Virus record (IMG/VR): IMGVR_UViG_3300046474_000274
Location: 36,425-100,424 of that record
Strand: one strand, 5' to 3'
DNA: 64,000 nucleotides
Source: a virus
Lineage: Duplodnaviria; Heunggongvirae; Uroviricota; Caudoviricetes
In this document: piece after piece, positions 3,385 to 63,965 of the stretch
Position numbering within the stretch: the stretch's first letter is position 1
How the letters are laid out: each line of letters begins with the position of its first letter
Position numbers and translations under genes: made by a program
Notes under the pieces: generated by a model
What the model was told of the DNA's origin: nothing
The model's input: the letters and a program-made list of their open reading frames with translations, nothing else
Database searches by the model: none

Positions 3385-3447
3385 GAACCTGACGCGCTCC
3401 CATGCGCGTATCGCTATAAGTGACGATGTAAGTAAGAGATTACTTAG
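3385..3447 (+). promoter_or_regulatory. early promoter/operator cassette: hairpin GACGCGC..GCGCGT, then TCGCTATAAG, then palindrome TAAGTAAGagatTACTTAG, 12 nt before the sbcD ATG
   Basis: Member of a family of about 20 copies. Confidence 0.7.
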
Positions 3448-3459
3448 AAAGGAATTCAC

Positions 3460-4554: not shown

Positions 4555-4618
4555 CGAACTCCGCTCGCTGATGCGCTAAAACATATCAACGCATTGATTT
4601 TATACAGGAAACAGTATC

Positions 4619-4954
4619 ATGCAGCTTTACACCGTGCACTTCACGACCAAGCAGCTTGTCTCGAAGTTCGATGATAAGGGCAGGAAGATCGGCGAATACG
4701 ACATCGATTATCCGCAGACGCTTCATGCGCTGCCGCTGTCGACCTGCCAGGGCTACAAGAAGTTCGGCAATTGGCGCATCGAGCCCTATTACTCCGACGT
4801 GTCCAAGCGGCCGTTCGAAGGCAAGAAGGCAAAGACCGAATATCGCGGCTCGGTTCCGGCAGGCAAGCCCAAGGCGGCGCCCGTCACGAACACGGTCCAG
4901 AACGCCGCAGCGTCCGGGAACCTGGCCGCGGCCATCAACGCCGGGGCGAAGTGA
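4619..4954 (+). CDS. hypothetical protein ending in the AAASGNLAAAINAGAK motif
   Basis: ORF track 4619..4954. Confidence 0.6.
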   Translation: MQLYTVHFTTKQLVSKFDDKGRKIGEYDIDYPQTLHALPLSTCQGYKKFGNWRIEPYYSDVSKRPFEGKKAKTEYRGSVPAGKPKAAPVTNTVQNAAASGNLAAAINAGAK

Positions 4955-5451
4955 TGTCGATCGTCTGCCCTCATTGCGACGAGCAGCAGGAGACGGCCGA
5001 GGTTATGGACGGCCTGCTCGGCTCAATGACCTGTATTGGCTGCGGCGAGGACATGGAACTCGATCTCTATGAGCGTAACCTGATCCTTGAGCCGTTTCTC
5101 AAGCACCTGGTCGCCCTCGTTCCGGGCCTGCCGCTTGTGATCGAACTGGAAAAGGATCCGGCCGAGGAAGACGAGGCGCCGCAGCAGACGGCGATCCAGA
5201 AGGCGGCTGCTGCCGGCGACCTGGCTGCAGCGATCAGCAAGGGCAAAGCGACCGCGTTCACGCGCTTCTATCTGCGGTCCAGGCACGCCGAGGATATTTT
5301 CGTCACCAAGAACGGCTGCCTGGCGTTGTGCAGGCGGCGCAACAAGGATGGCTCGCTTCGCGGCGCCCTTCCCTTCCCGACCAAGCAGGAAGCCGAGGCG
5401 TTCTCCCAAGGCCGCTACGCGGTTGTGCCAGACATGCAGCAGGTGAACTGA
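4954..5451 (+). CDS. Zn-ribbon hypothetical protein (CPHC...CIGC) containing an AAAAGDLAAAIS motif
   Basis: In frame with ORF 4771..5451; ATG 4954 overlaps the preceding TGA (TGATG). Confidence 0.55.
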   Translation: MSIVCPHCDEQQETAEVMDGLLGSMTCIGCGEDMELDLYERNLILEPFLKHLVALVPGLPLVIELEKDPAEEDEAPQQTAIQKAAAAGDLAAAISKGKATAFTRFYLRSRHAEDIFVTKNGCLALCRRRNKDGSLRGALPFPTKQEAEAFSQGRYAVVPDMQQVN

Positions 5452-5651
5452 TGAGCTATTTCAGCGGCAATCACCAGACGGAATTCCAGTTCAAGTTCCC
5501 GGCGCCGATCGAACAGCACCCTTGCTACTGGAAGCTCGGCCGGCGCCTCTCCCACCGTGGCGTCATTCCCTACGACGACGAGCCATTCTTTTGCGAGCGC
5601 TGCTGCGCCGAATTGGATCGAACCAAGCGCGCTATTTGCGAGGAAGCCTGA
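5451..5651 (+). CDS. small Cys-rich hypothetical protein (66 aa)
   Basis: In frame with ORF 5328..5651; ATG overlaps the preceding TGA; CERCC pair. Confidence 0.5.
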   Translation: MSYFSGNHQTEFQFKFPAPIEQHPCYWKLGRRLSHRGVIPYDDEPFFCERCCAELDRTKRAICEEA

Positions 5652-5652
5652 C

Positions 5653-7590
5653 ATGAAGTTCCCCGAGCTCGAAATCCAGAACTTCCTGGCGCTGACCAAT
5701 GCCAAGGTCAATCTGTCTGATCGCGGCCTGGTCCTGATCCAGGGCGACAACCAGGCCGACACGTCGGCAGATTCCAACGGCGTCGGCAAGTCGTCCATTC
5801 CCGAAGCGCTCGAATGGTGCTGGTTCGGCGAGACGGCACGCGGCGTGTCCGGTGATGACGTGATCAACCGCGATGCGAAGAAGGATTGCTTCGTCAAGTC
5901 CGTCGCGATCGACGGTCACATCACCTACACCGCGACCAGGCACCGCAAGCACAAGACGGGCAAGAACACCTTCACCTTGAAGTCGTTCGACGGCGTGAAA
6001 GAGGTCGATCTCACCAAGGGCACCGAGAAGCTGACGCAGGAAGTTGCGATCGGCATTATCGGCTGTTCGCTCGACGTGTTCACGGCTTCGATCTATGCCG
6101 GCCAGGAGAAGATGCCTGACCTGCCGTCGATGACTGACAAGAACCTGAAGGTCATCATCGAAGAGGCATCCGGCGCATCCCTGCTCGAAGGCGCCTATCG
6201 GATGGCCCGCAAGGACCACGACGACGCGCTGAAGGCGCTCGAGGTGGTAAGGATCGAGCACGACAAGGCAGATACCCAGGAAGGCTTCCTGCGTGCCCAG
6301 GTCCACTCGGCGAAGAGCCAGCTCGGGGCGTGGGCCGGCGAGAAGACGGTGCGCGAGCAGAAGGTCAGGGATGAGATCTCCGCGGTCCTTCCTCACCTGC
6401 GGCGGGTCAAGGAAGATCTGGAGAAGTTCGACAAGGCGCTGATCGAGGCCGGCATTGCCGACTGCGACAGCAAGATCGGGCTTGTCCAGGAGGAGCAGCG
6501 GGGCCTCGCCGCGCTCGACAAGACGCTGAATGACGCCCGTGCTTATGAGATCGCCTACGCGAACGAAAAGCAGATGCACGAGCAGGCGAAGCTCCGCGCC
6601 GAGAAGTCCTTGGAGCAGATCGAGCACCAGGTCGGCTGCCCCTGCTCCTCGTGCGGCCGGCCGCTGACGGCTGCCGAGCTCGGCACGGCTAAGAGCAAGG
6701 CCACGGAGCAGTTCCAGGCTTACGACAAGGCGCTTGCCGACGCGATCACGAAGCTTGCCGGGCAGACCGACAACGTAAAGCTCGTTCAGGCCGCTCGCGA
6801 CGAATTCGCTGCATCGATGACTGATATCAGCACGGTCGCAGCCCAGCGCTCTGTATTCGAACGTCAGCTTGCAACCGTCAACGATCTGCTCAGGCATCAG
6901 ACGAGTTACGCGAACACGGCCAGGTCGTGGCGCGATCAGTTGCTGGCGATCCAGGCGGAAACTAATCCGCATCATGCGACGGTCGAGCGCCTCGAGAAGG
7001 AATTGGCCGCGGCCGAAACCAAGACGGCCGAGTTGAAGAAGAAGATCGCCGAGGAAGAGGTGAACGTCGCGCTCGAGGCCGAGGTGGTGAAGATCTATTC
7101 GCCGGCCGGCGTCCGCGCCCACATTCTCGACGATGTGACGCCCTTCCTCAATGCGCAGACGGCGAAGTATCTGACGATCCTGTCGGATGGCAACATCGAG
7201 GCTATCTGGACCACGCTGACGCCGGACTCGAAGGGCGTCATGAAGGAGAAGTTCACGATCGAGGTCACGAACGCGACGGGCGGCGGGCTGTTCAAGGGGC
7301 TGTCAGGCGGCGAGAAGCGCAAGGTTCGCGTTGCGACGGCGCTCGCGCTGCAGGATCTCGTTGCCACCCGCGCGACCAAGCCGATCGACCTGTTTATCGG
7401 CGACGAAATCGATGACGCGCTCGACAGCTCCGGCCTGGAACGGCTGATGCAGATCCTCGAGGAGAAGGCGCGCGAGCGCGGCTCCGTCTTCGTGATCAGC
7501 CACAACGAGCTCCGCGACCACATCAAGCAGGTTCTCCTGGTCGAGAAGCTGCCGAACAAGACCACAAAGATTACGGAGATGGCAGCATGA
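5653..7590 (+). CDS. sbcC: SbcC/Rad50-like SMC ATPase with a CxxC zinc hook
   Basis: In frame with ORF 5557..7590; N-terminal P-loop GVGKSS; long coiled coil; hook CPCSSC; signature LSGGEKRKV plus Walker B LFIGDEID. Confidence 0.85.
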   Translation: MKFPELEIQNFLALTNAKVNLSDRGLVLIQGDNQADTSADSNGVGKSSIPEALEWCWFGETARGVSGDDVINRDAKKDCFVKSVAIDGHITYTATRHRKHKTGKNTFTLKSFDGVKEVDLTKGTEKLTQEVAIGIIGCSLDVFTASIYAGQEKMPDLPSMTDKNLKVIIEEASGASLLEGAYRMARKDHDDALKALEVVRIEHDKADTQEGFLRAQVHSAKSQLGAWAGEKTVREQKVRDEISAVLPHLRRVKEDLEKFDKALIEAGIADCDSKIGLVQEEQRGLAALDKTLNDARAYEIAYANEKQMHEQAKLRAEKSLEQIEHQVGCPCSSCGRPLTAAELGTAKSKATEQFQAYDKALADAITKLAGQTDNVKLVQAARDEFAASMTDISTVAAQRSVFERQLATVNDLLRHQTSYANTARSWRDQLLAIQAETNPHHATVERLEKELAAAETKTAELKKKIAEEEVNVALEAEVVKIYSPAGVRAHILDDVTPFLNAQTAKYLTILSDGNIEAIWTTLTPDSKGVMKEKFTIEVTNATGGGLFKGLSGGEKRKVRVATALALQDLVATRATKPIDLFIGDEIDDALDSSGLERLMQILEEKARERGSVFVISHNELRDHIKQVLLVEKLPNKTTKITEMAA

Positions 7591-7742: not shown

Positions 7743-7774
7743 GTCACAACATATAGCGCGCTCCCTCGAAAATT

Positions 7775-7806: not shown

Positions 7807-7818
7807 ATGGAGTTGAGG

Positions 7819-8289
7819 ATGCCGAAGGCGCGCACCGCTCTGAACGATGAAGTCAAGAAGATCCTGGAAGAGGTCGGCAACGAGGTCGTGGCCGCGCTCA
7901 AGGGTGAATTCTACGAGGTAGACGGCACGCCGATGGCGACCGTGAAATACGACACCGGCGCTTTCAAGAAGAAGCCGCTGATGCCGACGTGGCTCTTCCA
8001 GATCGAATACGCCTATGTCGGCGCGATGGGCAAGATCCAGTTCGGCCTCTCGCCGGAGGACGCCCAGGAATACAAGTTCGTGGAGATGCATCCGAAGGAA
8101 ATGGACGATGCCTTCCCGCTCGTAGGCCCGGCCGTCGCCAAGCACTTCGGCATCGAGGGTGAGAACCTCAAGATCGTTCTCGACGCCGAGCTGACCAGGC
8201 GCCTCAACGTGAAAGCCGACGCCGCAGAAGTCGAGCGCAAGCAGACCGAGGCCGCGTTGGAGCAGAACGAGCTGTTCGGCGCGTTCTGA
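7819..8289 (+). CDS. hypothetical protein with C-terminal ...ELFGAF
   Basis: ORF track 7807..8289; second ATG chosen because GGAGTTGAGG precedes it; promoter cassette upstream. Confidence 0.6.
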   Translation: MPKARTALNDEVKKILEEVGNEVVAALKGEFYEVDGTPMATVKYDTGAFKKKPLMPTWLFQIEYAYVGAMGKIQFGLSPEDAQEYKFVEMHPKEMDDAFPLVGPAVAKHFGIEGENLKIVLDAELTRRLNVKADAAEVERKQTEAALEQNELFGAF

Positions 8290-15266: not shown

Positions 15267-15340
15267 GCCGGGGTAGCTTAGGGCAGAGCAGCGACTTTCA
15301 GAGGTCGCAGGTCGAGGTTCGACTCCTTGCCCCGGAGCCA
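15267..15340 (+). tRNA. atypical tRNA-like gene: cloverleaf with a G1:A72 mismatch and an 8-nt anticodon loop UUUCAGAG (UCA if read as a 7-nt loop)
   Basis: T-arm CGAGG-TTCGACT-CCTTG; acceptor GCCGGGG/CCCCGGA with encoded CCA; D-arm TAGCTTAGGGCAGAGC; anticodon stem GCGAC/GTCGC. Confidence 0.45.
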
Positions 15341-20349: not shown

Positions 20350-21039
20350 ATGCCCCTGATCGTTCACAAGCACACCGAAATCATGAGCCCGACGCCGGCT
20401 CCCGTCACGCGCGGCCAGTATATGCACTCCGCAAACGGCCGGAAGATCTATCCGTTCGACCCGCGTCCGGAGGAAATCAACATCGGCGTCGTCGCCCATC
20501 ACCTGGCGACCAACAATCGCTGGAATGGCGCCACGCAGCACAAGCGGTTCAGGACTCGGATCTCGTATTCGGTCGCGGAGCACTCGGTCTACTGCGCCCG
20601 CTACATTCGCGAGGTATTGCAGCGGCCGGACCTCGAACTTGAGGCGCTGCTCCACGACGGGCCGGAATACATCACCGGCGACCTGATCCGGCCGCTCAAG
20701 CATTCGCCGCAGATCCACCCGATCTATTCCCAGGTCGAGGATAAGATCGAGCAGGCGTTCGCCAAGCGTTTCGGATTGCTCTATCCGCTCCCGAAGGAAG
20801 TGAAGATGGCTGACGAAGCCGTCTGCGCCGCGGAGTCGATCCAGATCGTGCCGAAGGATCCCTGCGAAGAATGGCAGTCGGGCAAGATGCACGACGACAG
20901 CAAGGTAGCTCCTTACGAAATTCAGATGCTGGATGCCTTCCCCGCGAAGGAATTCTTCCTGATGGAATATGAAGACGCCATTCGTCGCCGGCCGAATTAC
21001 GCTGATCTCCCGTCTTCTGTTGAGCTATATTCTAAGTAA
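20350..21039 (+). CDS. HD-domain phosphohydrolase (YfbR-like 5'-deoxynucleotidase family)
   Basis: ORF track; H...HD...D pattern (VAHHLA and LLHDGPEYITGD). Confidence 0.75.
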   Translation: MPLIVHKHTEIMSPTPAPVTRGQYMHSANGRKIYPFDPRPEEINIGVVAHHLATNNRWNGATQHKRFRTRISYSVAEHSVYCARYIREVLQRPDLELEALLHDGPEYITGDLIRPLKHSPQIHPIYSQVEDKIEQAFAKRFGLLYPLPKEVKMADEAVCAAESIQIVPKDPCEEWQSGKMHDDSKVAPYEIQMLDAFPAKEFFLMEYEDAIRRRPNYADLPSSVELYSK

Positions 21040-25024: not shown

Positions 25025-25370
25025 GATGCGCGCACTCCTCCCCTATCAGAAGCACGCTGAGGACTTCTTCGGCATCACCAATCCCGACCGGGGCTTCTTC
25101 ATCAACGTCTATCTCCGGGAGGTCGGCACGCCTGGCGAGCATCTGGAACCGGGCAATCTCTGGGCGAACCGGAGGGAAGCTGCTGTCAACGGTCGCGCCC
25201 AGGTCAAGGGAAGCAGTGACAAGATCGCCTACCGCATTCGCGTGAAACCGAAGGGTCCGATCCCGAGGCGCCCGCCGCCCGAGCCATTCCCGTCTCGCGG
25301 GTTTTATCAGCCTTTCTATTTTCACGGGCCTTGCATGTGCCAGTCCCGTTCCATGAGGAGTTTTAGATGA
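25008..25370 (+). CDS. hypothetical protein
   Basis: ORF track 25008..25370. Confidence 0.4.
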   Translation: MSMLAKMRALLPYQKHAEDFFGITNPDRGFFINVYLREVGTPGEHLEPGNLWANRREAAVNGRAQVKGSSDKIAYRIRVKPKGPIPRRPPPEPFPSRGFYQPFYFHGPCMCQSRSMRSFR

Positions 25371-26800
25371 GCAACATCACCGGCAAGACGCTTGTTTCCT
25401 GGGGTCTGCAGCCTGGCGCCTGGTTTAAGGAGGCTCTGCCGATCGCCCGCGAAATGCGCGCCACTGGCAAGAGCGACAAGGAGATCATCCAGGCCCTGTT
25501 CCCGATGCAGGCAGCCAAGGCGATCGATGAAGGCGTGCCGCTGCGCACTAACAACATTCCATTCGGCCAGTTCATCGAGCCGGAAGGTGACGACGAGAAG
25601 GCGAATGTCGCCTCGGTTCTCGCTCATATGGACGCGCTGATGCGTGTTCCGACGATCGAGAAGGGTGCAGTCATGCCGGATGCGTGCCCTTCCGGCTCGG
25701 CGCTCGGCACCATCCCTGTCGGTGGTGTGGTCGCGACCAAGAACGCGATCCATCCGGGCTTCCACTCCGCGGACATCTGCTGCTCGATGGCGATCTCCGT
25801 CTTCAAGCGCGACACGCCTGTAGATTACGTCCTCGACATTGCGATGAAGGCGTCTCACTTCGGCGTCGGCAAGCGCACGGCATCGGAAGCGCGCCAGTAT
25901 AAGGATCTGGTGCAGTTGGTGGGCGGCTTCGATGCGAACCCCTTCCTGAAGGGCCTCGAGGATTACGCCATTCACCACTTCATGACGCAGGGCGACGGCA
26001 ATCACTTCTTCTATGTCGGGCAGCTCGAAAGCACCGGGCAGATGGCGATCGTCACGCACCACGGCTCGCGCGGTCTGGGCGGCCAGCTCTACAAGCGCGG
26101 CAAGGCAGCAGCCGAGCGTCACACGCGCATCGTCGCAGGGCGGATCCCGCTGCACAACGCATGGATCGAGGCAGATAGCCAGGTCGGCCAGGATTACTGG
26201 CAGGCGCTGCAGGCAATCCGCCTGTGGACGAAGATGAACCACTTCGCGATCCACAACATCGTCGCCAAGCGCCTCGGCAATCAGATCATCGGGCAGTTCT
26301 GGAACGAACACAACTTCGTCTTCCAGCGCTCCGACGGGCTGTTCTATCACGCCAAGGGCGCAACGCCGTCGTTCAAGGGCTTTGCGAAGGACGACCAGGG
26401 TCTGACGCTGATCCCGATGAACATGGCGCAGCCGATCCTGATCGCCGAGCACGCCGAGAATGAAGATGCCCTTGGCTTTGCACCGCACGGCGCCGGCCGC
26501 AATCTCTCCCGCACCGGGCACATCAAGCGGCTGATGGCAGAGTTCGGCGACACGCGCGGTCTGGGGCCGAATGCGATCAAGGCGATCATGGAGCGCGAGA
26601 CCAAGGGCCTCGATGTCCGCTTTTACACCGGCGACCCTGACGTTTCCGAGCTGCCGAGCGCCTACAAGAACGCGGACCAGGTCCAGGCTCAGATCGAGAA
26701 GTTCGGTCTCGCCAAGATCGCCGATCGCATTCTGCCGCGTGGCTCGATCATGGCCGGCGAAATGAAGTGGCACAAGCCCAAGAAGCCGAAGGCCGAATAA
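25367..26800 (+). CDS. rtcB: RtcB RNA 3'-phosphate/2',3'-cyclic-phosphate ligase
   Basis: ORF track; RtcB motifs GDGNHFFYVG, HHGSRGLG, NHNFV and APHGAGR; GGAG RBS. Confidence 0.9.
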   Translation: MSNITGKTLVSWGLQPGAWFKEALPIAREMRATGKSDKEIIQALFPMQAAKAIDEGVPLRTNNIPFGQFIEPEGDDEKANVASVLAHMDALMRVPTIEKGAVMPDACPSGSALGTIPVGGVVATKNAIHPGFHSADICCSMAISVFKRDTPVDYVLDIAMKASHFGVGKRTASEARQYKDLVQLVGGFDANPFLKGLEDYAIHHFMTQGDGNHFFYVGQLESTGQMAIVTHHGSRGLGGQLYKRGKAAAERHTRIVAGRIPLHNAWIEADSQVGQDYWQALQAIRLWTKMNHFAIHNIVAKRLGNQIIGQFWNEHNFVFQRSDGLFYHAKGATPSFKGFAKDDQGLTLIPMNMAQPILIAEHAENEDALGFAPHGAGRNLSRTGHIKRLMAEFGDTRGLGPNAIKAIMERETKGLDVRFYTGDPDVSELPSAYKNADQVQAQIEKFGLAKIADRILPRGSIMAGEMKWHKPKKPKAE

Positions 26801-28566: not shown

Positions 28567-28755
28567 ATGAGCGAAACGCAGCGCATCGTAGGTCACGTCA
28601 CCAACGCCCGCTTTCTCACCATCGGCTCCGACAAGCAGGTGCTCGCCGGCACGCTGGACGGCAAGACCTTCTATTCCGAGCCGATCATCGAGCTCGACGG
28701 CAACATTATCCGGACTGCCAACGGCAGCTTCCGCTACAGCAGGAGCATTCACTGA
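28567..28755 (+). CDS. hypothetical protein
   Basis: ORF track; promoter cassette upstream. Confidence 0.5.
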   Translation: MSETQRIVGHVTNARFLTIGSDKQVLAGTLDGKTFYSEPIIELDGNIIRTANGSFRYSRSIH

Positions 28756-29792
28756 TGCGGGATTTCCACTACGGCATCTACATCGGCCGCTTTCAGCCGC
28801 TGCACATCGGTCATGAGCAGGTCATTCGCCAGGCGCTTGAGCGCTGCGAGACCCTGATCGTCATCGTCGGCTCGAGCCACATGGCGCGCAACCCGGTCAA
28901 TCCGTTCATCTTCGAGGAGCGCGAGGCGATGCTGCGCGCTGCCTTTCATCACGAGATGGCATCGGGCCGCATGATCGTCCTGCCCCTCTACGACTACGAG
29001 CATGACTACGACTGGTCGACCAACCTCAAGAAGGGCGTCACCGAAGCCATTCTCGATCACGCCAATAAGGGCGGCATCCGCCTGCACGGCACTCGCGACT
29101 TCAAGATCGCGCTCACCGGCTACGGCAAGGACTCCTCGTCCTACTATCTCGATATGTTCCCCGAGTGGGATAACATCCAGATCGATACGCAGCACGGCAC
29201 GATCAACGCGTCCGATATCCGCTACGATTATTTCCGTCGGCTCCCGCGCATGCCGCACGATGCCGTGTCGCCGAAGATCCTCACCTTTCTCAAGGAATTC
29301 TCGCTCACCGAGCCGTTCAAGGATCTCGTCGCCTACAAGGACGCGCTGTCCCGCGACAACATCGATTATGGTCAGGGTCCGTTTCTCGCGGCAGATGTGC
29401 TGATCACCTGGCGCGGCAAGATCCTGCTGATCACGCGCGGCAAGGATGTTGGCAAGGGCACGCTCGCCATGCCGGGCGGCTTCGTCGAGAAGGGTGAGCG
29501 CTTCCTGGACGCCGCGATCCGCGAGCTGAAGGAAGAAGCAAACATCGACGGCCAGGATATCGCCGACTACCTCGCCGGCCACACGCTGGCCGACAACCCG
29601 AAGCGCTCGCTGCGGGGCCGGATCGTGTCGATGGTCTTCCACTTTGACATTCCCGCCGAGGTCGAGGTCACGACGCCGAAGGGCGGCGACGATGCCTCGC
29701 ACGCCGATTGGTATGACTTCGAGAGCCTCGGCACCGAGCGCTTCTACGAAGATCACCACACCCTCATCACCAACATTCTTACTGGGGAGTAA
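28755..29792 (+). CDS. nadM: bifunctional NMN adenylyltransferase / Nudix hydrolase (NadM-like)
   Basis: ORF track; HxGH-type motif GRFQPLHIGH; C-terminal Nudix box GGFVEKGERFLDAAIRELKEEANI. Confidence 0.85.
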   Translation: MRDFHYGIYIGRFQPLHIGHEQVIRQALERCETLIVIVGSSHMARNPVNPFIFEEREAMLRAAFHHEMASGRMIVLPLYDYEHDYDWSTNLKKGVTEAILDHANKGGIRLHGTRDFKIALTGYGKDSSSYYLDMFPEWDNIQIDTQHGTINASDIRYDYFRRLPRMPHDAVSPKILTFLKEFSLTEPFKDLVAYKDALSRDNIDYGQGPFLAADVLITWRGKILLITRGKDVGKGTLAMPGGFVEKGERFLDAAIRELKEEANIDGQDIADYLAGHTLADNPKRSLRGRIVSMVFHFDIPAEVEVTTPKGGDDASHADWYDFESLGTERFYEDHHTLITNILTGE

Positions 29793-29794
29793 CC

Positions 29795-31246
29795 ATGAGG
29801 AACATCATCCTCTCGACCGACAGCTACAAGCACTCGCACTTCCTGCAGTATCCGCCCGGTGCGCAGTCCGTCTCCTCCTACATCGAGGCGCGCCGCGGCT
29901 CCGACAAGAAGCAGGTCTCGCTCTTCTTCGGCCTGCAGGCATTCCTGCTCGAATACCTGTCCGAATCCTTCACGCACGATGACGTGGAAGAAGCCGAGGA
30001 GCTCTGCAAGGTTCACGGCCTGCCGTTCAACCGCGAAGGCTGGGACTACATCCTCAAGGAACACCACGGCTACCTGCCGATCGAGATCCAGGCACTGCCG
30101 GAAGGCACGCTTGTTCCGCGCGGCACGCCGCTGATCCAGGTCAGGAACACCGACCCGAAGGTTCCGTGGCTGACGAGCTTCATCGAGACGGCGCTGCTGC
30201 GGGCCATCTGGTATCCGACTTCGGTCGCGACCCTGTCCTTCATCACCAAGGCGATCATCTACGACGCCCTGAAGCGCACGTCGGACAATCCGGACGCTCA
30301 GATCCCGTTCAAGCTGCACGACTTCGGCGCCCGCGGCGTCTCCTCCGGCGAGAGCGCCATGCTCGGCGGGATGGCGCACCTGGTCAACTTCAAGGGCACT
30401 GACACGCTCGAAGCCATCCAGGGCGCGATGCACTACTATCATGCTGCCTCGATGCCGGGCTTCTCCATCCCTGCATCCGAACATTCGACCATGACGAGCT
30501 GGGGCAAGGATCGCGAGTCCGCTGCCTACGCCAACATGATCGAGCGGTTCGGCGACGGGCTCTTCTCGATTGTCTCCGACAGCTACGACCTGTTCAACGC
30601 GGTCGAAAGCATCTTCGGCGACGAGCTGAAGGAGAAGATCCTCAACATCAAGGGCAAGCTGATCATCCGGCCGGACTCGGGCGACCCGATCTCGACGCCG
30701 ATCGCCGTCATCAGGAAGCTCTGGGAGATCTTCGGCGGGACCGTCAACTCGAAGGGCTACAAGGTGCTCAACGAGAAGATCGCCGTCATCCAGGGCGACG
30801 GCATGAACGGTTCCTCGATCGCCCATCTCGTGACCTCGCTGGTCGCTGAAGGCTTCTCCATCGACAATATCGCCTTCGGTATGGGCGGCGGACTGCTGCA
30901 GGGTCACATGCGCGACGACATGCGCTTCGCCATGAAGGCCAATGCGATCGACTTCGGCGATGGCTGGGTCGATGTCCAGAAGAAGCCCGCGACGGATCCC
31001 TTGAAGGCGTCGAAGGCAGGTCGCCAGGCTGTCATCAGTATCGACGGCGAGCTCGAAAGCGTCCGCGAGGATGCTCTGGAACAGCTCACCGGTGAAGTGA
31101 ACCTCCTCGAGGTCGTCTGGTCGAACGGTCAGATGGTGCGCGAGCACACCTGGGAAGAGGTCACGGAGCGCGCCCACAAGGAGCTCCAGAACTTCACCGA
31201 CACGGTGATGAAGCGCTCCGAGGAACAGGCGGAAGCGGCTGAATAA
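29795..31246 (+). CDS. nadV: nicotinamide phosphoribosyltransferase (NAMPT/NadV)
   Basis: ORF track; N-terminus ILSTDSYKHSH is typical of NAMPT; 483 aa. Confidence 0.9.
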   Translation: MRNIILSTDSYKHSHFLQYPPGAQSVSSYIEARRGSDKKQVSLFFGLQAFLLEYLSESFTHDDVEEAEELCKVHGLPFNREGWDYILKEHHGYLPIEIQALPEGTLVPRGTPLIQVRNTDPKVPWLTSFIETALLRAIWYPTSVATLSFITKAIIYDALKRTSDNPDAQIPFKLHDFGARGVSSGESAMLGGMAHLVNFKGTDTLEAIQGAMHYYHAASMPGFSIPASEHSTMTSWGKDRESAAYANMIERFGDGLFSIVSDSYDLFNAVESIFGDELKEKILNIKGKLIIRPDSGDPISTPIAVIRKLWEIFGGTVNSKGYKVLNEKIAVIQGDGMNGSSIAHLVTSLVAEGFSIDNIAFGMGGGLLQGHMRDDMRFAMKANAIDFGDGWVDVQKKPATDPLKASKAGRQAVISIDGELESVREDALEQLTGEVNLLEVVWSNGQMVREHTWEEVTERAHKELQNFTDTVMKRSEEQAEAAE

Positions 31247-35153: not shown

Positions 35154-35380
35154 TGTTCTCCATTTTCCCAGCACCTCCCCCTCGTTCGTCGGTGATTGAT
35201 GAGGAGATCCCAAGCGGCCTAATGATCCGATCCTTAACGCTTTGGCAACTGTTATATTCAGAAATTCTACCCAGGGTTAACGCGGATTCTACGCGCTGCC
35301 GTCGCTCTTTCGCTATAAGTGATTTCGTAACGAAACGCGCTATATGCGCGACTGCTGACACATAATTTAAGGAAATCTTC

Positions 35381-36351: not shown

Positions 36352-36578
36352 GCGCCCGCCTGCTTGCCGAGGTCCAGCGCCGGCACAAGGCTGAGAACGA
36401 GAGGACGCCAACCCGCAACATGTTTGTAAAGCTCCACGTTGGCCAGGAGATCTTCAAGGGCTGGATCACCAAGATCGATCCGGCAGGCGGATATGTCGAG
36501 CTATCCCGCGACCGTAACGACGGCGGGTTGATCCTCATCGAAATGGATCGCATCGTCGCGGTCATGCCGAATTGGTGA
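36348..36578 (+). CDS. hypothetical protein
   Basis: ORF track. Confidence 0.5.
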   Translation: MSARLLAEVQRRHKAENERTPTRNMFVKLHVGQEIFKGWITKIDPAGGYVELSRDRNDGGLILIEMDRIVAVMPNW

Positions 36579-36581: not shown

Positions 36582-37244
36582 ATGGTCAATATGAGCGAGT
36601 GGCTCCTCGACACCGAAGGTTGGTCAAAGGAGTTGTTGAGCGGGATCATTGCGCTGCCAAGTCGCGGCGCCGGTAAGAGCGTCTTCCAGCAGCTCTATAT
36701 GCAGCGGCCGCGTATCGATAAAGGCATCCGCGGCGCTACGGTCAACACCATCGTTGTCGACGAAGCCGCATCTGCCTTTACCGTCGATATTCTCCGCAAT
36801 GCGATTGAACACATCGAGCTCCGGCGTGACCGCCTCTCGTGGGAAGACTTCCCCAAGTTTGGTCCAATCCCGACCGCGAAGGTGGACGGTAAATGGCTCT
36901 CCCGCGATGACGTGAAGGCGACCTTTAAGGATGAGAAGCATCCCAGCGCCGACACCTACCTGGTGCTGGAAAAGCTCGACAGGAAGGATCCTCGCCATCC
37001 TAACCCGGCAGCCGGCACCCAGAGGCTTTGGTATGTCCTGCAGGGTCAGAAGCGCGTCCAGGTCAAGAACCTGTCCCAGGGCCAGGGGCGCGCCCGTGCG
37101 ATGCATCTGGCCGAGATCAAGCGGATCGAGGATGCGAAGGCTGCGGCCGAGCGCGAGCGTCTGATCGCTGCAACCGAAGCCTACGAGAAGGCACAGCGCG
37201 AACATGAACACCTAACCAACCTGCCGGCATTTGGAGGCTTCTGA
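36582..37244 (+). CDS. hypothetical protein with C-terminal ...LPAFGGF
   Basis: ORF track. Confidence 0.55.
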   Translation: MVNMSEWLLDTEGWSKELLSGIIALPSRGAGKSVFQQLYMQRPRIDKGIRGATVNTIVVDEAASAFTVDILRNAIEHIELRRDRLSWEDFPKFGPIPTAKVDGKWLSRDDVKATFKDEKHPSADTYLVLEKLDRKDPRHPNPAAGTQRLWYVLQGQKRVQVKNLSQGQGRARAMHLAEIKRIEDAKAAAERERLIAATEAYEKAQREHEHLTNLPAFGGF

Positions 37245-37591
37245 TGACCGAAGACGAGAAGAAGACCCGCATCCGCGAGCTTAACGACGAACTGCGCGCC
37301 AAGCGCCTTGTGCGCAACGGCAAGATCATCATCACCGGCGATCTGACCAACGAGGTCGACGACCGTGGGAAGATCATGGCGATCCTCGACGCCATCCGGG
37401 ACTTCAACGACTTTCCGAAGGGCAATGATCCCTATCTCGAGCACGACTTCGGCAGGTTCGCCGTCGGCGATGACACGTTCATCTTCAAGATCGACTACTA
37501 CGCCCTGGACGAGGCGACCCTTTCCCCTCACCCCGAGGATCCCGCGACCACGATCAGGGTTATGTCGGTCTTCTACGCCCACGACTATTGA
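37244..37591 (+). CDS. hypothetical protein
   Basis: ORF track. Confidence 0.55.
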   Translation: MTEDEKKTRIRELNDELRAKRLVRNGKIIITGDLTNEVDDRGKIMAILDAIRDFNDFPKGNDPYLEHDFGRFAVGDDTFIFKIDYYALDEATLSPHPEDPATTIRVMSVFYAHDY

Positions 37592-37599: not shown

Positions 37600-37668
37600 T
37601 GAGCTGCGCTCGTTACCGAGCGCACTCCTACACGTTTTGCGCTATAAGCTAAGTAAGAGCTTACTTAT
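37600..37668 (+). promoter_or_regulatory. hairpin TGCGCTCG..CGAGCGCA followed by GCGCTATAAGCTAAGTAAGAGCTTACTTAT
   Basis: Family member. Confidence 0.65.
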
Positions 37669-37683: not shown

Positions 37684-37902
37684 ATGCCAGATGCCAACGT
37701 TCTCGACGCCCTGTTTGAGGCGGCGCTCGAACATGAGTTCTTCCCAAAAGGCACGATCATCAAGCGTCGTTTCGAAGGCGCTCATGGCCCTGGGTCCACT
37801 CACGACATCCTCTTTGAGGATCAGAGGACCGGCAAGACCTATCGGATCACGGCCGAGCTGCAGCCGACGCCTGTCGATTACGGCCGCTCCGTAGGCGCCT
37901 GA
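37684..37902 (+). CDS. hypothetical protein
   Basis: ORF track; promoter cassette upstream. Confidence 0.5.
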   Translation: MPDANVLDALFEAALEHEFFPKGTIIKRRFEGAHGPGSTHDILFEDQRTGKTYRITAELQPTPVDYGRSVGA

Positions 37903-37906
37903 GACG

Positions 37907-38194
37907 ATGAGCAAGCGGGTCAAGGTCGGCGATATCGAGGTCGGGGTGATGAGGAATCCTCTTCCCGAGAAAACCAATTGGATCGTCTACCGCTACCGGC
38001 CCCGGACCAACGAATACCTATCGAAGCAGGATGCCTACACCGACGTTCAGGCGGAAAACCTATTCACGCTGGTCATCGGACAGGAAGAACTTCGGCAGAA
38101 GCGGGCGGCGTTAGCGGCGTCTGCAGTGATGAGTGAGCCGGACCTGGCGGAAGTGGCTCACTACCAGACACATCCTTTCTTTGCGAGGTTCTGA
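37907..38194 (+). CDS. hypothetical protein with C-terminal ...HPFFARF
   Basis: ORF track. Confidence 0.5.
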   Translation: MSKRVKVGDIEVGVMRNPLPEKTNWIVYRYRPRTNEYLSKQDAYTDVQAENLFTLVIGQEELRQKRAALAASAVMSEPDLAEVAHYQTHPFFARF

Positions 38195-38195
38195 A

Positions 38196-38444
38196 ATGAG
38201 TGTGCAGAAGCGCAAGCGCGACCTGTTGAAGATGGCGCAGTCGATCTGCCCGAAGGCCAAAATAGAGCATTCGGGCCATCACCTAGCCATCACAATCTTC
38301 GGTCCGGAAGGATCTCGGAAGGTGTTCTGCGCATCGACCGCGTCCGACCATCGCGATGCCAAGAATATCAAGCGCGATCTCCTGGGCGCGGCGCGCGCCG
38401 TTGGTCTCGTTGCTAACCGCAATGAGCCTCCCGCATCCCAATAA
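38196..38444 (+). CDS. hypothetical protein
   Basis: In frame with ORF 38133..38444. Confidence 0.5.
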   Translation: MSVQKRKRDLLKMAQSICPKAKIEHSGHHLAITIFGPEGSRKVFCASTASDHRDAKNIKRDLLGAARAVGLVANRNEPPASQ

Positions 38445-38495
38445 TCAGCGCATTAGAATGCGAATATAAGCAACGTCTACACGAGGAAAGCTCCG

Positions 38496-39050
38496 ATGAA
38501 CCGTTATTCCGTGCATGGCGAGAACATGATCGCCAAGGCCGACCTGTTCGCCTTCGCCGCGCATACCGCGATCGGCCAGGTCCGCAAATACACTAACGAG
38601 CCCTATATTGATCATCCGCGCGCAGTCGCCGATATGGTGAGGGCTCTGCCGGATCACACCTGGCAGCAGGTCGTCCTGGCGCTGATCCACGACACGGTCG
38701 AGGATACGAAGATCGAGATGAGCCACGTCCGGGCGGTATTCGGCGAGGAGATCGCCGACGGGCTCTATTATCTGACCAATGTCGAACCCAGCGCCGGCAA
38801 TCGTGCGCGCCGGCATTACCTCAACTGCGAGCGGCTGCGGAACTCGCCCGCCCGTGTGGCGACGGTCAAGTGCCTCGACATCTTCCACAACACCGCGCGG
38901 ATCGCCGAGCTCGATCCGACTTTCGCGCCACAGTATCTGCGTGAGAAGGCCGAGGCGCTGGAGTCGCTGCGTCACGCCGACAATATCGTCTGGCGCATGA
39001 CCTGGGAGCAGATTGCCAACGCCGCACTTGCCGTAGGGGCCGCCTCATGA
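38496..39050 (+). CDS. SpoT/RelA-type HD-domain hydrolase (small alarmone hydrolase-like)
   Basis: ORF track; EPYIDHPRAVA...LIHDTVEDT aligns with the SpoT HD region EPYITHPVAVA...LLHDVIEDT. Confidence 0.75.
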   Translation: MNRYSVHGENMIAKADLFAFAAHTAIGQVRKYTNEPYIDHPRAVADMVRALPDHTWQQVVLALIHDTVEDTKIEMSHVRAVFGEEIADGLYYLTNVEPSAGNRARRHYLNCERLRNSPARVATVKCLDIFHNTARIAELDPTFAPQYLREKAEALESLRHADNIVWRMTWEQIANAALAVGAAS

Positions 39051-39586
39051 CCGACACCATCGCCGTTCACCATATCGAAGAGGTGCCGGGCGGTGCCTCC
39101 CTTCAGGTCATTTCGATCGAGGACAAGCTCGAGGGCGACAGGTTCTTCGTGCGCCTGGCCGAAGGCATGGAGTTCGAGGACACGCCCTTCGAGGACTATC
39201 CGCAAGCCTACGCGCATTGGCGCAACGTGTTGCGGACCCTCGGCATCACGGTCGCTTATGTGGCGCCAGTGGTCGAGTTCATCGACATGTCAGCGCCGGC
39301 TGACGTTCGCGGCGCCGTGGAGATCTATTTCGAGTTCCACAGCCATCTCAATCGACTTCGCGCCGGCACGGATGAGGCGACGGCGATCAGGGACAAGTAT
39401 CTGACCGACCCGGAGTTCATCGACAACGTCGCCGAGATCCTCGAGCTCGCCGGCTCCAACGGTTCCGATTGGGTCGCCGCGACCATCCGCACTGCCTGCC
39501 GGCGGGTGATGGCCCGTGAGCAGATGGCCCATAAGAAGTCCGTCGAGGAGCACCTGGGCGGCCTGTCGACCTTCGGCGCATTCTAG
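39047..39586 (+). CDS. hypothetical protein with C-terminal ...LSTFGAF
   Basis: ORF track. Confidence 0.55.
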   Translation: MTDTIAVHHIEEVPGGASLQVISIEDKLEGDRFFVRLAEGMEFEDTPFEDYPQAYAHWRNVLRTLGITVAYVAPVVEFIDMSAPADVRGAVEIYFEFHSHLNRLRAGTDEATAIRDKYLTDPEFIDNVAEILELAGSNGSDWVAATIRTACRRVMAREQMAHKKSVEEHLGGLSTFGAF

Positions 39587-39616: not shown

Positions 39617-39658
39617 GTCATCACCTACCGCGTTCCAACGCTGTTTTCGCTACAAATG
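39617..39658 (+). promoter_or_regulatory. GTCATCACCTACCGCGTTCCAACGC...GCTACAAATG element upstream of the gene at 39697
   Basis: Second motif family. Confidence 0.5.
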
Positions 39659-39696: not shown

Positions 39697-40113
39697 ATGG
39701 TGAACGTGCCGAATGCCAAGCGCGTCATCGCGTCAATTAGAGGGCTTTTGCCCGAGACGCAGAACCTGGGCTTCAACATGGGCGGCTATGTCTACCCGAC
39801 GAGCGAAGCCCTGCCTGATCATAGCGGTCACAATCTCGAATGGGTCGCATGCGTCTGCGGCCACGCCTACATCCTCGAGACCGGGTGTTCCTTCCAGCAG
39901 GCTAAGGACGAGGAACCCGATGAGATCGAGGAAATCGCCCAGCTCTATCTGGGGCTAAGCCATGAGCAGGCAAATGCCCTGTTTTTCGATCTGCCCGATC
40001 ACCTGACGCTCGCCTGGATCCCGCTCGACCATGTGGTCGCAGTGCTGGAACGGCTGATCGCGACTGGCGAGGTCAACTGGATCCTGGAGGAAGCCCATGC
40101 CGAAGCTGCATGA
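39697..40113 (+). CDS. hypothetical protein
   Basis: ORF track; GGAGTGAG RBS. Confidence 0.55.
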   Translation: MVNVPNAKRVIASIRGLLPETQNLGFNMGGYVYPTSEALPDHSGHNLEWVACVCGHAYILETGCSFQQAKDEEPDEIEEIAQLYLGLSHEQANALFFDLPDHLTLAWIPLDHVVAVLERLIATGEVNWILEEAHAEAA

Positions 40114-40387
40114 CGGCTGGACGCAGCTCCAAGGCGTCTCCGGTGCCGGCTGGGATATCTGGGCAGGCACCAGTCCTTACATGCCGGAGGGCTCGCGCTT
40201 TGCGATGTTCCGGCGCCGCATCGCCGAGGAGGAGACCTACACCAGAGGGCTCATCTACCCGACGCTGACGCAGGTGCAGGCCGCGATCTATCAGATCCGG
40301 CTTCAATTCGAGCGCGGCAAATACCAATTCGAAGACCTCTTTCCCAATGAGGTCATCATCGATCATCCCAATTTCGGAGCATTCTGA
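40097..40387 (+). CDS. hypothetical protein with C-terminal ...HPNFGAF
   Basis: ORF track. Confidence 0.5.
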   Translation: MPKLHDGWTQLQGVSGAGWDIWAGTSPYMPEGSRFAMFRRRIAEEETYTRGLIYPTLTQVQAAIYQIRLQFERGKYQFEDLFPNEVIIDHPNFGAF

Positions 40388-57937: not shown

Positions 57938-58014
57938 CGCGGGATAGCTCAGTTGGTCAGAGCGCTGGACTCATAATCCAGAGGTCGTCGGTTCAAGTCC
58001 GACTCCCGCAACCA
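57938..58014 (+). tRNA. tRNA-Met(CAU) with an initiator-like C1:A72 mismatch; ends ...CCCGCAACCA as in E. coli tRNA-fMet
   Basis: D-arm TAGCTCAGTTGGTCAGAGC; anticodon arm CTGGA-CTCATAA-TCCAG; T-arm GTCGG-TTCAAGT-CCGAC; CCA encoded. Confidence 0.85.
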
Positions 58015-58029: not shown

Positions 58030-58105
58030 GGGTGTGTAGCTCAATGGATCAGAGCAGCGGTCTCCAAAACCAAAGACCAGGGTTCGATTCCCTGCTCACC
58101 CGCCA
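58030..58105 (+). tRNA. tRNA-Trp(CCA)-like; anticodon loop CTCCAAA as in E. coli tRNA-Trp but the anticodon stem has two mismatches
   Basis: Acceptor GGGTGTG/CTCACCC (one mismatch); D-arm TAGCTCAATGGATCAGAGC; T-arm CAGGG-TTCGATT-CCCTG; CCA encoded. Confidence 0.6.
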
Positions 58106-58128: not shown

Positions 58129-58524
58129 ATGCCCTCTCCCTACAAGAACGCCGTCTGCCGCGGCTCCATCTTCCTCAACACCGGCTGCGGTCATTGCGAG
58201 CGCTGCAAGGAAGAACAGGCACGCATCGCCGAGAAGTCCGATACTCATGAAGCTGAAAAGCTGGATAGCCATGTAGCTACACAGGTCGCTGGCCTGCCGG
58301 TCGCGGGCTACAAGAAGACCCAGCCGCCTCACCTCATCGCGCTCGTCAACGAGAACAAGGTTCTCGAGGAGAAGATCCTTCGCCAGATCGACCTGCACGT
58401 CCAGCGCGGCGCCGAACTCGACCAGCGCTCGGTGCAGATGGCCCGTGGATTGATCGAGGATGCCTTCATGCGGCTCAACCGCGGCGTCTTCCAGCCGCAG
58501 CGCCTCGATGGTGACCTCGAATGA
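58129..58524 (+). CDS. Zn-finger hypothetical protein (CRGSIFLNTGCGHCERC)
   Basis: C-terminal part of ORF 57892..58524; the N-terminal part of that ORF runs across the two tRNA genes and is spurious. Confidence 0.5.
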   Translation: MPSPYKNAVCRGSIFLNTGCGHCERCKEEQARIAEKSDTHEAEKLDSHVATQVAGLPVAGYKKTQPPHLIALVNENKVLEEKILRQIDLHVQRGAELDQRSVQMARGLIEDAFMRLNRGVFQPQRLDGDLE

Positions 58525-59318: not shown

Positions 59319-59567
59319 CTATTTAGCTTTTTCCTTCTCGACACGCTCCCAGGTCGCGAAGCACTCGATCAGCAGATCCTTCATGTCCATACCGCGCGAG
59401 ACCGCGGTCATTTTGAATCGGGTGTGCCAGTCGCGCGGCATGTTGAAGGTCATGCCGACCAACTTCTCACCCTTCATGTTATTGGCCGCCTCGACCGGCT
59501 TTGTCTGCTCGGGCAGGAAGGCGGTCTTCTTCGGGGGAGGGGCTACCTTGGCACGGCTCTCTATCAT
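59319..59567 (-). CDS. parG: ParG-like ribbon-helix-helix centromere-binding protein
   Basis: ORF track; ...MPRDWHTRFKMTAVSRGMDMKDLLIECF fits the ParG RHH region (HTRFK); ATGA overlap with parA. Confidence 0.65.
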   Translation of the reverse strand: MIESRAKVAPPPKKTAFLPEQTKPVEAANNMKGEKLVGMTFNMPRDWHTRFKMTAVSRGMDMKDLLIECFATWERVEKEKAK

Positions 59568-60217
59568 GCGGCTTCTCCAATAGCGCTGGCGCGATCGACA
59601 ATCTCGGCTGCGAGCAGGTCTGCAACTTCTTCCAGCTTACCCACATGCTTCTCGACCTCAGATAAGGCGTAGCCGTGGTTTTGTGCGCGCTGGTATGAAA
59701 TCTTGGCCGCGATCTCCTGGCGAGCGACATAGAAGCCGGTCGCCGTGGTCAGGTAATCGCGGGCCGCGTTGACCGCGGACTTGCTCTCGGTGATCTTGTT
59801 GAGGACGAAGACGATCCGCTCCTTCGGCACGCCCTTGGCGATGAGCTCCATACCAAAGGCAAGCTGCGGCTCCAGGTCGTCGAGCGGCAGCCCGGTCGGG
59901 ATGACGACCAGGTCCGAGAGGAGGGCGATGTCGAGTGAGGATTGATCGGAGTCCGGTCTGCCGTCGGCAACGACCAGATTGTAGTCCTCGCGGCGCATGG
60001 CTGTCGGCTGGACGAAGGGTGCTGCGTCGATGACGGGCTCGAGGCCGGCCTGCTTGCGGATCTCGGCCCATTTGACCGAGGTGAGCTGCTTCGTGTTGAA
60101 GTCCGCGATCTTCACGGTCCATTGGGCCGTGGCGTATGTTCTGGCAATCAGACGGGCGAGGGTGGACTTGCCAACCCCGCCCTTCTGGGACAGGCATGCG
60201 ATGATCAGGTCAGCCAT
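59564..60217 (-). CDS. parA: ParA/ParF-type partition ATPase
   Basis: ORF track; deviant Walker A LSQKGGVGKST; 217 aa. Confidence 0.85.
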   Translation of the reverse strand: MADLIIACLSQKGGVGKSTLARLIARTYATAQWTVKIADFNTKQLTSVKWAEIRKQAGLEPVIDAAPFVQPTAMRREDYNLVVADGRPDSDQSSLDIALLSDLVVIPTGLPLDDLEPQLAFGMELIAKGVPKERIVFVLNKITESKSAVNAARDYLTTATGFYVARQEIAAKISYQRAQNHGYALSEVEKHVGKLEEVADLLAAEIVDRASAIGEAA

Positions 60218-63224: not shown

Positions 63225-63965
63225 ATGCGCAAGATTGAATATCTGAACGTCGCTGTTTCCCAGTTGCGGAAGAACCCCTGGAATACCAATAAGGTCTCGC
63301 CTGAAAACGAGCTCAAGATCCGCGAAAGCCTCAACCGCAACGGCATGTTCAAGCCGATTGTCGTTCGCGAAGTCGAGGGTGTGCCTGGCTATGAGATCCT
63401 GGGCGGCGAGCATCGCTGGGAACAGGCGATCGAACTTGGCGAATCTGAGGTGCCTGTTGCCAACCTCGGCGTCATTGCCGAAAAGCAGGCCAAGGAAATC
63501 GGTCTCATCGACAACGCCCGGTATGGCGCCGATGACACGCTCGGTCTTTCTGATCTTCTCAAGGAGATTGGTGACGTTCCTGAACTTCAAAGCTTTCTTC
63601 CTTATGGGCAGGCCGATATTGACGCTATTTTCTCAGCGTCAGTTATAGCGCTCGACGACTTGGAGATTGACGAAAGCTTCGAAAAGTCGTCCGAAACGGA
63701 CGAGGCTGAAACGCCTCTGCCGAAGGTCGCCAAGACCCACGCCGTCATGCGCTACAAGGTGCCGCTCGCCGACGCCGAACGGCTGACCGCTCTCATCGCA
63801 AAGACCCAGAAGAGCCACGGCTACACGACCGAGGACGAGCTCACCAACGCCGGTGACGCCCTGGTCCATCTCCTCTCCGATCATCTGAAGCGCGCCAGCG
63901 GCCCCAAGGACGAAGACCTTGAAGCCGTGCTCGACGCTGCTCTCGCCAACCCGGAAGATCTCTGA
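63225..63965 (+). CDS. ParB-like nuclease-domain protein (ParB/Srx fold)
   Basis: ORF track; KPIVVRE and ILGGEHRWEQA ParB-box motifs; promoter cassette upstream. Confidence 0.8.
   Translation: MRKIEYLNVAVSQLRKNPWNTNKVSPENELKIRESLNRNGMFKPIVVREVEGVPGYEILGGEHRWEQAIELGESEVPVANLGVIAEKQAKEIGLIDNARYGADDTLGLSDLLKEIGDVPELQSFLPYGQADIDAIFSASVIALDDLEIDESFEKSSETDEAETPLPKVAKTHAVMRYKVPLADAERLTALIAKTQKSHGYTTEDELTNAGDALVHLLSDHLKRASGPKDEDLEAVLDAALANPEDL

Follow-up and report, generated by a model that had tools for sequence, protein, structure and literature searches.

Our analysis concerns one gene in a 64,000-nucleotide stretch of viral DNA (IMG/VR record IMGVR_UViG_3300046474_000274, positions 36,425 to 100,424), which we call the window and in which coordinates are counted from the first letter. 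The gene lies on the + strand at 38496..39050, and its product is well supported as a single-domain RelA/SpoT-homologue (RSH) hydrolase, i.e. a small alarmone hydrolase (SAH). The ATG-start open reading frame (ORF), taken from the ORF list, encodes 184 amino acids, and its stop codon and the next gene's start share an ATGA at 39047-39050. Its GC content at third codon positions (GC3 0.80) is typical of genuine genes in the window, whose overall GC content is 60% and whose gene set was sorted by a pass based on GC3 and GC2. The following features define the locus:

38483-38490, + strand: Shine-Dalgarno-like GAGGAAAG, which ends 5 nt before the SAH ATG, its GAGGA core being 8 nt upstream
38496..39050, + strand: SAH coding sequence, a hydrolase-only RSH that is provisionally PaSpo-like, PaSpo being the SAH of Salmonella phage SSU5 (ORF, Pfam, PHROG, AlphaFold2, Foldseek, identity to the SSU5 protein)
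38583..38630, + strand: N-terminal active-site segment 'RKYTNEPYIDHPRAVA' with R30, Y37 and H40, the predicted first metal ligand; EPYIDHPRAVA is residues 35-45, nt 38598-38630 (RelSeq alignment, invariant columns)
38682..38708, + strand: LIHDTVEDT, residues 63-71, with the HD motif H65-D66 and the predicted catalytic Glu-Asp dyad E69-D70 (RelSeq alignment, invariant columns)
38796..38813, + strand: GNRARR segment with the invariant R103 and R106 (alignment of homologues)
38865..38891, + strand: VKCLDIFHN, residues 124-132, the third active-site motif, with N132 and D128, the predicted last metal ligand (RelSeq alignment, invariant columns)

The ORF is a real gene, and its domain and family matches are far beyond chance. 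Residues 21-141 match Pfam HD_4 (PF13328, the RelA/SpoT-type HD domain) with 32.1 bits vs a cut-off of 27.2, a domain carried by nearly all of the 58 database homologues, and the protein matches PHROG 990, 'metal-dependent phosphohydrolase', at E 2.5e-35. Among solved structures, 22 RSH hydrolase chains are matched by sequence at E <= 0.03, including Listeria Lmo0812, Rel/SpoT hydrolase domains of several bacteria, bacterial SAHs and MESH1, with the (p)ppApp hydrolase Aph1 as a weak match. The match to TIGR00691 (spoT_relA) is confined to positions 2-120 of the 687 of the profile, which indicates that the hydrolase domain alone is present; in agreement, the Pfam and TIGR00691 scans of the 184 residues found no RelA_SpoT (synthetase) match, and there are no synthetase, TGS or ACT domains. 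Several homologues in GenBank (MT778838.1, MT770738.1, KY499642.1, AP018399.1 and others) are nevertheless labelled 'bifunctional (p)ppGpp synthetase/hydrolase', 'GTP pyrophosphokinase' or 'RelA/SpoT family (p)ppGpp synthetase'. These labels are over-annotations: the family has no synthetase domain.

The active site was compared with that of RelSeq (1vj7), in which H53, H77, D78 and D144 bind Mn2+, E81 and D82 are catalytic, and R44 and N148 contact the substrate. The phmmer alignment pairs R44 with R30, H53 with H40, H77/D78 with H65/D66, E81/D82 with E69/D70, D144 with D128, and N148 with N132. In an alignment of 47 homologues all these counterparts are invariant, as are H23, Y37, R103, R106 and E150. 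By analogy, the protein would be a catalytically competent, metal-dependent 3'-pyrophosphohydrolase with an intact catalytic set, probably using Mn2+. The GNRARR segment that contains R103 and R106 corresponds to GNRIQR in PaSpo; the aligned Rel and Lmo0812 sequences do not conserve it. It may be a signature of the subfamily and perhaps forms a phosphate-binding site.

The predicted structure leads to the same family. The AlphaFold2 model is all-helical and very confident (predicted local distance difference test, pLDDT, 96.4; predicted template modelling score, pTM, 0.92), and all 39 Foldseek matches in the PDB at E <= 0.001 are RSH hydrolases (SAH, MESH1, Rel and SpoT domains). The best are the SAH of Pseudomonas aeruginosa (template modelling score, TM, 0.82), human and Drosophila MESH1 (0.77-0.81), a Leptospira SAH and Corynebacterium RelH; the model superposes over its full length on the solved SAHs, and 24 viral cluster representatives have the same fold. 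A first-pass annotation had described a 184-residue ORF with EPYIDHPRAVA and LIHDTVEDT as a phage-encoded HD hydrolase of the SpoT/RelA type, similar to SAHs. The ORF list and the sequence bear out the description of the ORF, and domain, catalytic residues, architecture and predicted fold confirm that of its product, whose catalytic His and Asp residues (H40, H65, D66 and D128) are present without substitution in all 47 sequences.

One might still suspect that the protein is degenerate or inactive, or a generic HD phosphohydrolase with no more than a resemblance to RSH hydrolases, because the Pfam score is only modestly above its cut-off and relatives bear the generic name 'metal-dependent phosphohydrolase'. 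Yet, the complete catalytic set is intact and invariant, the confident model finds significant structural matches in RSH hydrolases alone, and the gene is conserved across a diverged lineage; we regard such a protein as extremely unlikely. A second alternative is a MESH1-like phosphatase that acts mainly on some 3'-phosphorylated or pyrophosphorylated metabolite other than an alarmone, for example NADPH, 3'-phosphoadenosine 5'-phosphosulfate (PAPS) or a nucleotide immune signal. Human MESH1 with NADPH and with PAPS is among the best structural matches (TM 0.77-0.81), the promiscuity of SAHs is documented (PMC9765508), and the phage also manipulates NAD metabolism. Against this, similarity to MESH1 is weak (~27 bits) when compared with PaSpo (106) or Rel hydrolase domains (40-46), and the alarmone-contacting residues of Rel, R30 and N132 here, are invariant. 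Given how the similarity scores compare and that the active site is invariant, both alternatives are unlikely, and the MESH1-like role is in our view quite improbable.

Homologues are common in phages. Searches with tblastn found them in 202 phage records, including phages of Pseudomonas, Erwinia, Serratia and Rhizobium (13 records for the latter), and the SAH is kept across the diverged phage lineage of the window at 49-78% identity. A distant homologue (P0045) was also observed on a metagenome scaffold of ~200 kb, a size typical of jumbo phages, where, in a run of small genes (region 3408-6507), it lies less than 600 bp downstream of a gene for an ADP-ribosylglycohydrolase and one with an ADP-ribosyltransferase exotoxin domain. 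The highest bit score among non-rhizobial phage matches is that of Salmonella phage SSU5, whose protein SSU5_099 (PaSpo) shares 42% identity over 142 residues (106 bits, E 9e-34) and has all the catalytic motifs. Scores to other enzymes are lower (Lmo0812 52.9, Rel hydrolase domains 40-46, P. aeruginosa SAH 29.9, MESH1 ~27, RelH 17.5). As for the relation to CHARACTERISED enzymes, the protein is thus provisionally PaSpo-like, nearer in sequence to the SSU5 prototype than to the other SAHs compared (Lmo0812, P. aeruginosa SAH, MESH1 and RelH); a formal assignment would rest on the published RSH hidden Markov models or phylogeny (Atkinson 2011; Jimmy 2020).

This relationship is informative because PaSpo has been assayed. 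When co-expressed, SSU5_099 neutralises the toxic small alarmone synthetases (toxSAS) CapRel, PhRel, PhRel2, FaRel and FaRel2 (PMC7229694, Table 1), and it is reported to strip the tRNA modification made by FaRel2 (PMC11245113). CapRel, FaRel2, PhRel and PhRel2 pyrophosphorylate tRNA at its 3' CCA end rather than make alarmones, and both MESH1 and ATfaRel restore the aminoacylation of pyrophosphorylated tRNA in vitro (10.1101/2021.04.30.441581). PaSpo and the SAH of the window are both stand-alone, hydrolase-only RSH proteins of phages, with the same H / HD / ED / D..N residues and the string 'LTN..GNR..R'. Both genes lie in runs of small genes and overlap the 3' gene by 4 nt, and both elements come from phage-plasmid lineages. 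They differ in that PaSpo has 213 residues with a longer, unrelated C-terminus, that the downstream genes are non-homologous, that the hosts are Enterobacteria in one case and Rhizobiaceae in the other, and that neutralisation of toxSAS has been assayed for PaSpo, whereas the SAH of the window is known from its sequence and model.

The other known enzymes are more distant. The P. aeruginosa SAH (6yvc, 6z3n, 6z3o) is also single-domain and aligns over its full length (TM 0.82, root-mean-square deviation 2.4-2.7, ~180 columns), but at ~25% identity, and it is encoded by a bacterial chromosome rather than by a phage. MESH1 (3nr1, 3nqw, 5vxa, 9chy) resembles the protein in fold and size and hydrolyses (p)ppGpp, but it is eukaryotic, ~22% identical, and reported to be a physiological NADPH phosphatase. 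The hydrolase domains of long Rel/SpoT proteins (RelSeq 1vj7, Mycobacterium tuberculosis Rel 5xnx, Thermus thermophilus Rel 6s2t; E 6e-11 to 3e-9) have the same active-site residues within proteins that add synthetase, TGS and ACT domains and allosteric regulation, whereas here the hydrolase domain stands alone. ATfaRel is a hydrolase-only RSH that neutralises all toxSAS by degrading the toxin product (PMC7229694); it differs in adjoining its toxSAS in a three-gene operon, the SAH of the window having no such neighbour, and in belonging to another SAH subfamily of the published classification. Finally, Aph1, from a Bacteroides caccae prophage (7smg), is a prophage-encoded hydrolase of the SAH fold with an immunity function (PMC10083569). 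It is shorter (~145 residues, two helices fewer), specific for (p)ppApp and encoded directly 3' of a MuF-fused synthetase toxin, and the SAH of the window matches it at E 1.7e-3 by sequence with a query-based TM score (TMq) of ~0.6.

The source of the window is a Rhizobium phage of the B1VFA / V1VFA-S / RHEph10 phage-plasmid lineage. Its DNA is nearest to that of Rhizobium phages V1VFA-S, B1VFA and RHph_X66 (77-83% identical across parts of a query of 6 kb). The closest relatives are siphophages with direct terminal repeats and the phage-plasmid features parA, parB and repC (PMC12509600), and a link has been made between RHEph10 and pLM21S1, a known phage-plasmid (PMC7969092). The window itself contains ParA and ParB genes (59564-60217 on the - strand and 63225-63965 on the + strand), and SAH homologues lie on replicons or contigs of phage-genome size (115-120 kb) in isolate assemblies from Pararhizobium, Ensifer, Rhizobium, Shinella and Sinorhizobium. 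Both observations fit the phage-plasmid lifestyle proposed for B1VFA, V1VFA-S and pLM21S1 (PMC12509600, PMC7969092).

The SAH gene is found within a run of some 20 small + strand genes without assigned function, of which the nearest are preceded by a promoter-like cassette:

37244-37591, + strand: DUF3768 protein (82 bits), ~0.9 kb upstream of the SAH
37620..37667, + strand: nearest cassette copy upstream of the SAH, GCGCACTCC ... TTTGCGCTATAA ... TAAGTAAG-n-CTTACTTA hairpin (aligned copies)
37684-37902, 37907-38194 and 38196-38444, + strand: three small genes between cassette and SAH, collinear with V1VFAS_011-013, with no Pfam or PHROG function
39047..39586, + strand: acidic protein of 179 residues (pI 4.8), coupled to the SAH by the 4-nt ATGA overlap

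The cassette recurs on the + strand and consists of GCGCTCC(C)AA, a gap of about 8 nt, TTTGCGCTATAA and a TAAGTAAG-n-TTACTTA hairpin, followed by a ribosome-binding site and the start codon. Its 12-mer TTTGCGCTATAA has 9 matches vs 2.0 expected, a number that none of 100 shuffles reached, while a palindrome pattern with a fixed 4-nt spacing matched nothing in the window, because the spacing varies among copies. These are found at 7772, 20113, 23887, 28523, 35979 and 37636, with weaker ones at 35307 and 39644, and only before non-structural + strand genes, including those of replication and metabolism. V1VFA-S has the cassette at no fewer than nine sites, including 2967, 4627 (syntenic with the SAH copy), 96615, 100753, 103472, 107217, 111439 and 114281. 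All are in the non-structural arms and none is in the structural module at 35-65 kb; in the deposited record, some 5.5 kb lie between the left end and the SAH.

Since the nearest copy lies at 37620-37667 and the next, degenerate, at 39644, the SAH would belong to a five-gene unit from 37684 to 39586. The cassette at 37620..37667 is likely to start this unit, and the three small genes between it and the SAH are presumably co-transcribed with the latter. Absence of the cassette from the structural module of V1VFA-S favours non-late expression of the SAH. The gene had been placed by the first-pass annotation in an 'early small-gene run', a description accurate for the run itself; 'early' goes further than the cassette, which favours non-late. 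V1VFA-S encodes a sigma-70-family factor of its own (V1VFAS_109).

The organisation of FaRel operons, in which the SAH antitoxin precedes the toxSAS, led us to examine the coupled 179-residue protein as a hidden toxin. The coupling is retained in V1VFA-S, and the family of the protein has 12 members, which all come from this phage group and in which the DTPFEDYPQAYAHWRN block and the FGAF end are invariant. Its AlphaFold2 model (pLDDT 77.9) has no fold match in the PDB, the best hit being at E 0.03 with a TM of 0.2. We rejected a FaRel-like toxin-antitoxin module on these grounds: no Pfam or PHROG match, a family confined to one lineage, and no fold resembling that of a small alarmone synthetase (SAS). 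A module of SAH plus partner common to this lineage and SSU5 was rejected as well, the downstream genes being non-homologous and the RHEph10 / Pararhizobium clade having yet another downstream gene. Among the ten flanking small proteins, only the DUF3768 protein was given a function by Pfam or PHROG. DUF3768 is upstream of the SAH here and downstream of it in a Pararhizobium element, which shows that the run has been rearranged between clades.

The search for a toxin in the rest of the window gave similar results. RelA_SpoT and MuF domains were not found among the neighbours of the SAH or the scanned window proteins, and a (p)ppApp synthetase fused to MuF or PAAR was rejected because neither the large nor the other scanned proteins have such a domain. 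The annotation of the complete V1VFA-S genome, through which alone the genome beyond the window was checked, contains no second RSH. With no synthetase or toxin nearby, the SAH is a stand-alone enzyme, as had been claimed from its sequence, unlike ATfaRel or Aph1 (PMC10083569).

These results bear on the possibility that the SAH is an immunity or antitoxin hydrolase of a plasmid-prophage, shielding the lysogen from (p)ppApp-synthetase toxins, whether those of competitors (Tas1-type effectors of type VI secretion systems) or those of the element itself (Aph1/Apk2-like or ATfaRel/FaRel-like modules). The parA, parB and repC genes of relatives (PMC12509600), ParA and ParB in the window, and homologues on replicons of ~116 kb in isolate genomes would all suit such a role, for which prophage Aph1 (PMC10083569) and the antitoxin ATfaRel (PMC7229694) are precedents. 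However, the neighbours and scanned window proteins lack RelA_SpoT and MuF domains, the coupled protein lacks an SAS-like fold, and V1VFA-S has no other annotated RSH. Moreover, full-length SAHs fit the model better (TMq 0.82) than the shortened Aph1, and the unit has a lytic-type promoter cassette that it shares with replication and metabolism genes. We therefore judge protection of the lysogen to be an unlikely main function.

The rest of the window contains genes of DNA and nucleotide metabolism (SbcCD-like nuclease, ribonucleotide reductase, rIIA/rIIB, helicase, RecA, exonuclease, HNH endonuclease and ATP-dependent ligase), four tRNA-like genes, and several genes of damage reversal or anti-defence. 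Among all these are:

15267-15340, + strand: tRNA-like gene with a 4-base anticodon (tcag), from ARAGORN
25367-26800, + strand: RtcB RNA ligase (Pfam RtcB), 72% identical to the RtcB of the Pararhizobium element
28755-29792, + strand: nicotinamide mononucleotide (NMN) adenylyltransferase/Nudix protein (CTP_transf_like and NUDIX domain matches)
29795-31246, + strand: nicotinamide phosphoribosyltransferase (NAMPT_N and NAPRTase domain matches), adjoining the previous gene
58129-58524, + strand: 131-residue Acb2/Tad1 hairpin-domain protein (PF24729, 40 bits vs a cut-off of 27)

The two NAD-salvage genes form a pair of the kind called NAD-reconstitution counter-defence (NARP2; PMC13464706). The Acb2/Tad1-domain gene, which comes directly after genes for tRNA-Met (57938-58014) and tRNA-Trp (58030-58105), encodes a candidate sponge for cyclic-nucleotide immune signals. 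In the Pararhizobium element only ~2.7 kb separate the RtcB gene from the SAH gene downstream of it, and in Bradyrhizobium phage BDU-MI-1 the two adjoin; this vicinity raises a possible theme of tRNA repair. A 'pseudo-CCA' tRNA has been reported from relatives.

On mechanism and ALTERNATIVES, we consider it very probable that the protein works as a 3'-pyrophosphohydrolase and so holds down the levels of (p)ppGpp, (p)ppApp and/or pyrophosphorylated tRNA (tRNA-PP) in cells that are infected or lysogenised. The stand-alone SAH would be expressed along with further small genes of host takeover, probably under a non-late phage promoter. It would take the 3'-pyrophosphate off (p)ppGpp and (p)ppApp and, very plausibly, off tRNA CCA ends that toxic SAS have pyrophosphorylated. 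The infected or lysogenised cell would thereby be spared the arrest of growth and translation imposed by alarmones or toxSAS. Neutralisation of toxSAS by PaSpo gives the idea of counter-defence a direct precedent, and CapRel-type SAS do occur in alpha-proteobacteria (PMC3153485). Together with the RtcB, NAD-salvage and Acb2/Tad1-domain genes of the window, this amounts to circumstantial support for such a role. The earlier proposal that the enzyme blunts toxSAS/CapRel-type defences by degrading alarmones keeps its outcome, given the PaSpo precedent (PMC7229694), but has to change its chemistry: against CapRel, the reaction would be the de-pyrophosphorylation of tRNA, not the degradation of alarmones (10.1101/2021.04.30.441581; PMC11245113).

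Several points weigh against this proposal. The nearest enzyme with experimental tests is 42% identical, and the substrate preference of phage SAHs cannot be read from sequence (PMC12846349). As MESH1 shows, the fold can also act on NADPH (10.1101/2021.04.30.441581), and the PDB contains MESH1 in complex with PAPS (9chy). Sigma-70 promoters, tried and rejected as evidence for 'early' expression, are not enriched in the region (6 consensus sites vs 4.0 +/- 2.2 expected in a simple scan). Lastly, no paper in the searched literature shows a phage SAH beating toxSAS during infection.

The SAH might also serve the phage in a simpler way, by only dampening the stringent response: during infection it would break down the (p)ppGpp that the rhizobial host produces with its one Rel, and so keep the synthesis of rRNA, nucleotides and DNA high, with no specific role against defence. 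The protein has the active site of a (p)ppGpp hydrolase, the window contains many genes of nucleotide metabolism (ribonucleotide reductase, NAD salvage), phage infection has been linked to the accumulation of alarmones (discussion of PMC7229694), and the same reading was proposed for another phage SAH (PMC12846349). On the other hand, the closest tested homologue acts on the products of toxSAS, including modified tRNA. Sequence alone does not separate the stringent response from counter-defence, and the two roles are not mutually exclusive. We hold dampening alone to be a realistic possibility, though one that we favour less than not.

A more specific proposal starts from the end of the coupled protein. 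Four otherwise unrelated + strand proteins of the window, at 7807-8289, 36582-37244, 39047-39586 and 40097-40387, end in FG[AG]F-COOH (tails QNELFGAF, LPAFGGF, LSTFGAF and HPNFGAF), and a fifth, at 37907-38194, has the variant HPFFARF. Only 4 of the 683 stop-to-stop ORFs of at least 50 residues in the window have an FG[AG]F end. The tail is conserved in orthologues and invariant in 12/12 homologues of the partner of the SAH. V1VFA-S has five proteins with the tail, one of which (V1VFAS_112) comes directly after DNA polymerase III alpha, and three proteins of the Pararhizobium element end in NPNFGRF. It looks like a common docking or degron peptide, and its presence on unrelated proteins, one of them encoded directly after the polymerase, may point to a shared docking site on some hub of the host or the phage. 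The SAH could be one arm of a kit for reversing damage to tRNA and nucleotides, with RtcB, the phage tRNAs, NAD salvage and the Acb2/Tad1-like sponge as other arms. Its substrate would be tRNA with CCA ends pyrophosphorylated by rhizobial CapRel-type toxSAS, rather than free alarmones, and the 179-residue partner could tether or regulate it through the FGAF peptide. We offer this version as a speculation with little chance of being right.

Since 2020, SAHs of phages have been put forward as a means of evading abortive infection based on alarmones or toxSAS, with support, in the searched literature, limited to co-expression assays with two Salmonella phage enzymes. Stand-alone phage SAHs were thus already described and tested in 2020 and their homologues are common, so that the identification made here is correct but ordinary and leaves existing knowledge unchanged. 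What it adds is the extension of the PaSpo-like type to a phage-plasmid lineage of Rhizobiaceae in which the gene is conserved, and the correction of misleading 'bifunctional synthetase/hydrolase' labels on its relatives. More unusual than the gene itself are two features next to it, the FG[AG]F tails of unrelated small proteins and the promoter-like cassette with its hairpin. It also points to a genetically tractable system of soil and symbiotic bacteria in which the importance of SAHs could be judged in real infection or lysogeny.

The SAH is not the only HD-domain protein of the window, which encodes a second, unrelated one:

20350-21039, + strand: YfbR-like 5'-deoxynucleotidase, a borderline match (25.4 vs 25.9 bits)

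This protein is the counterpart of V1VFAS_144, annotated as a 'metal dependent phosphohydrolase of HD superfamily'.

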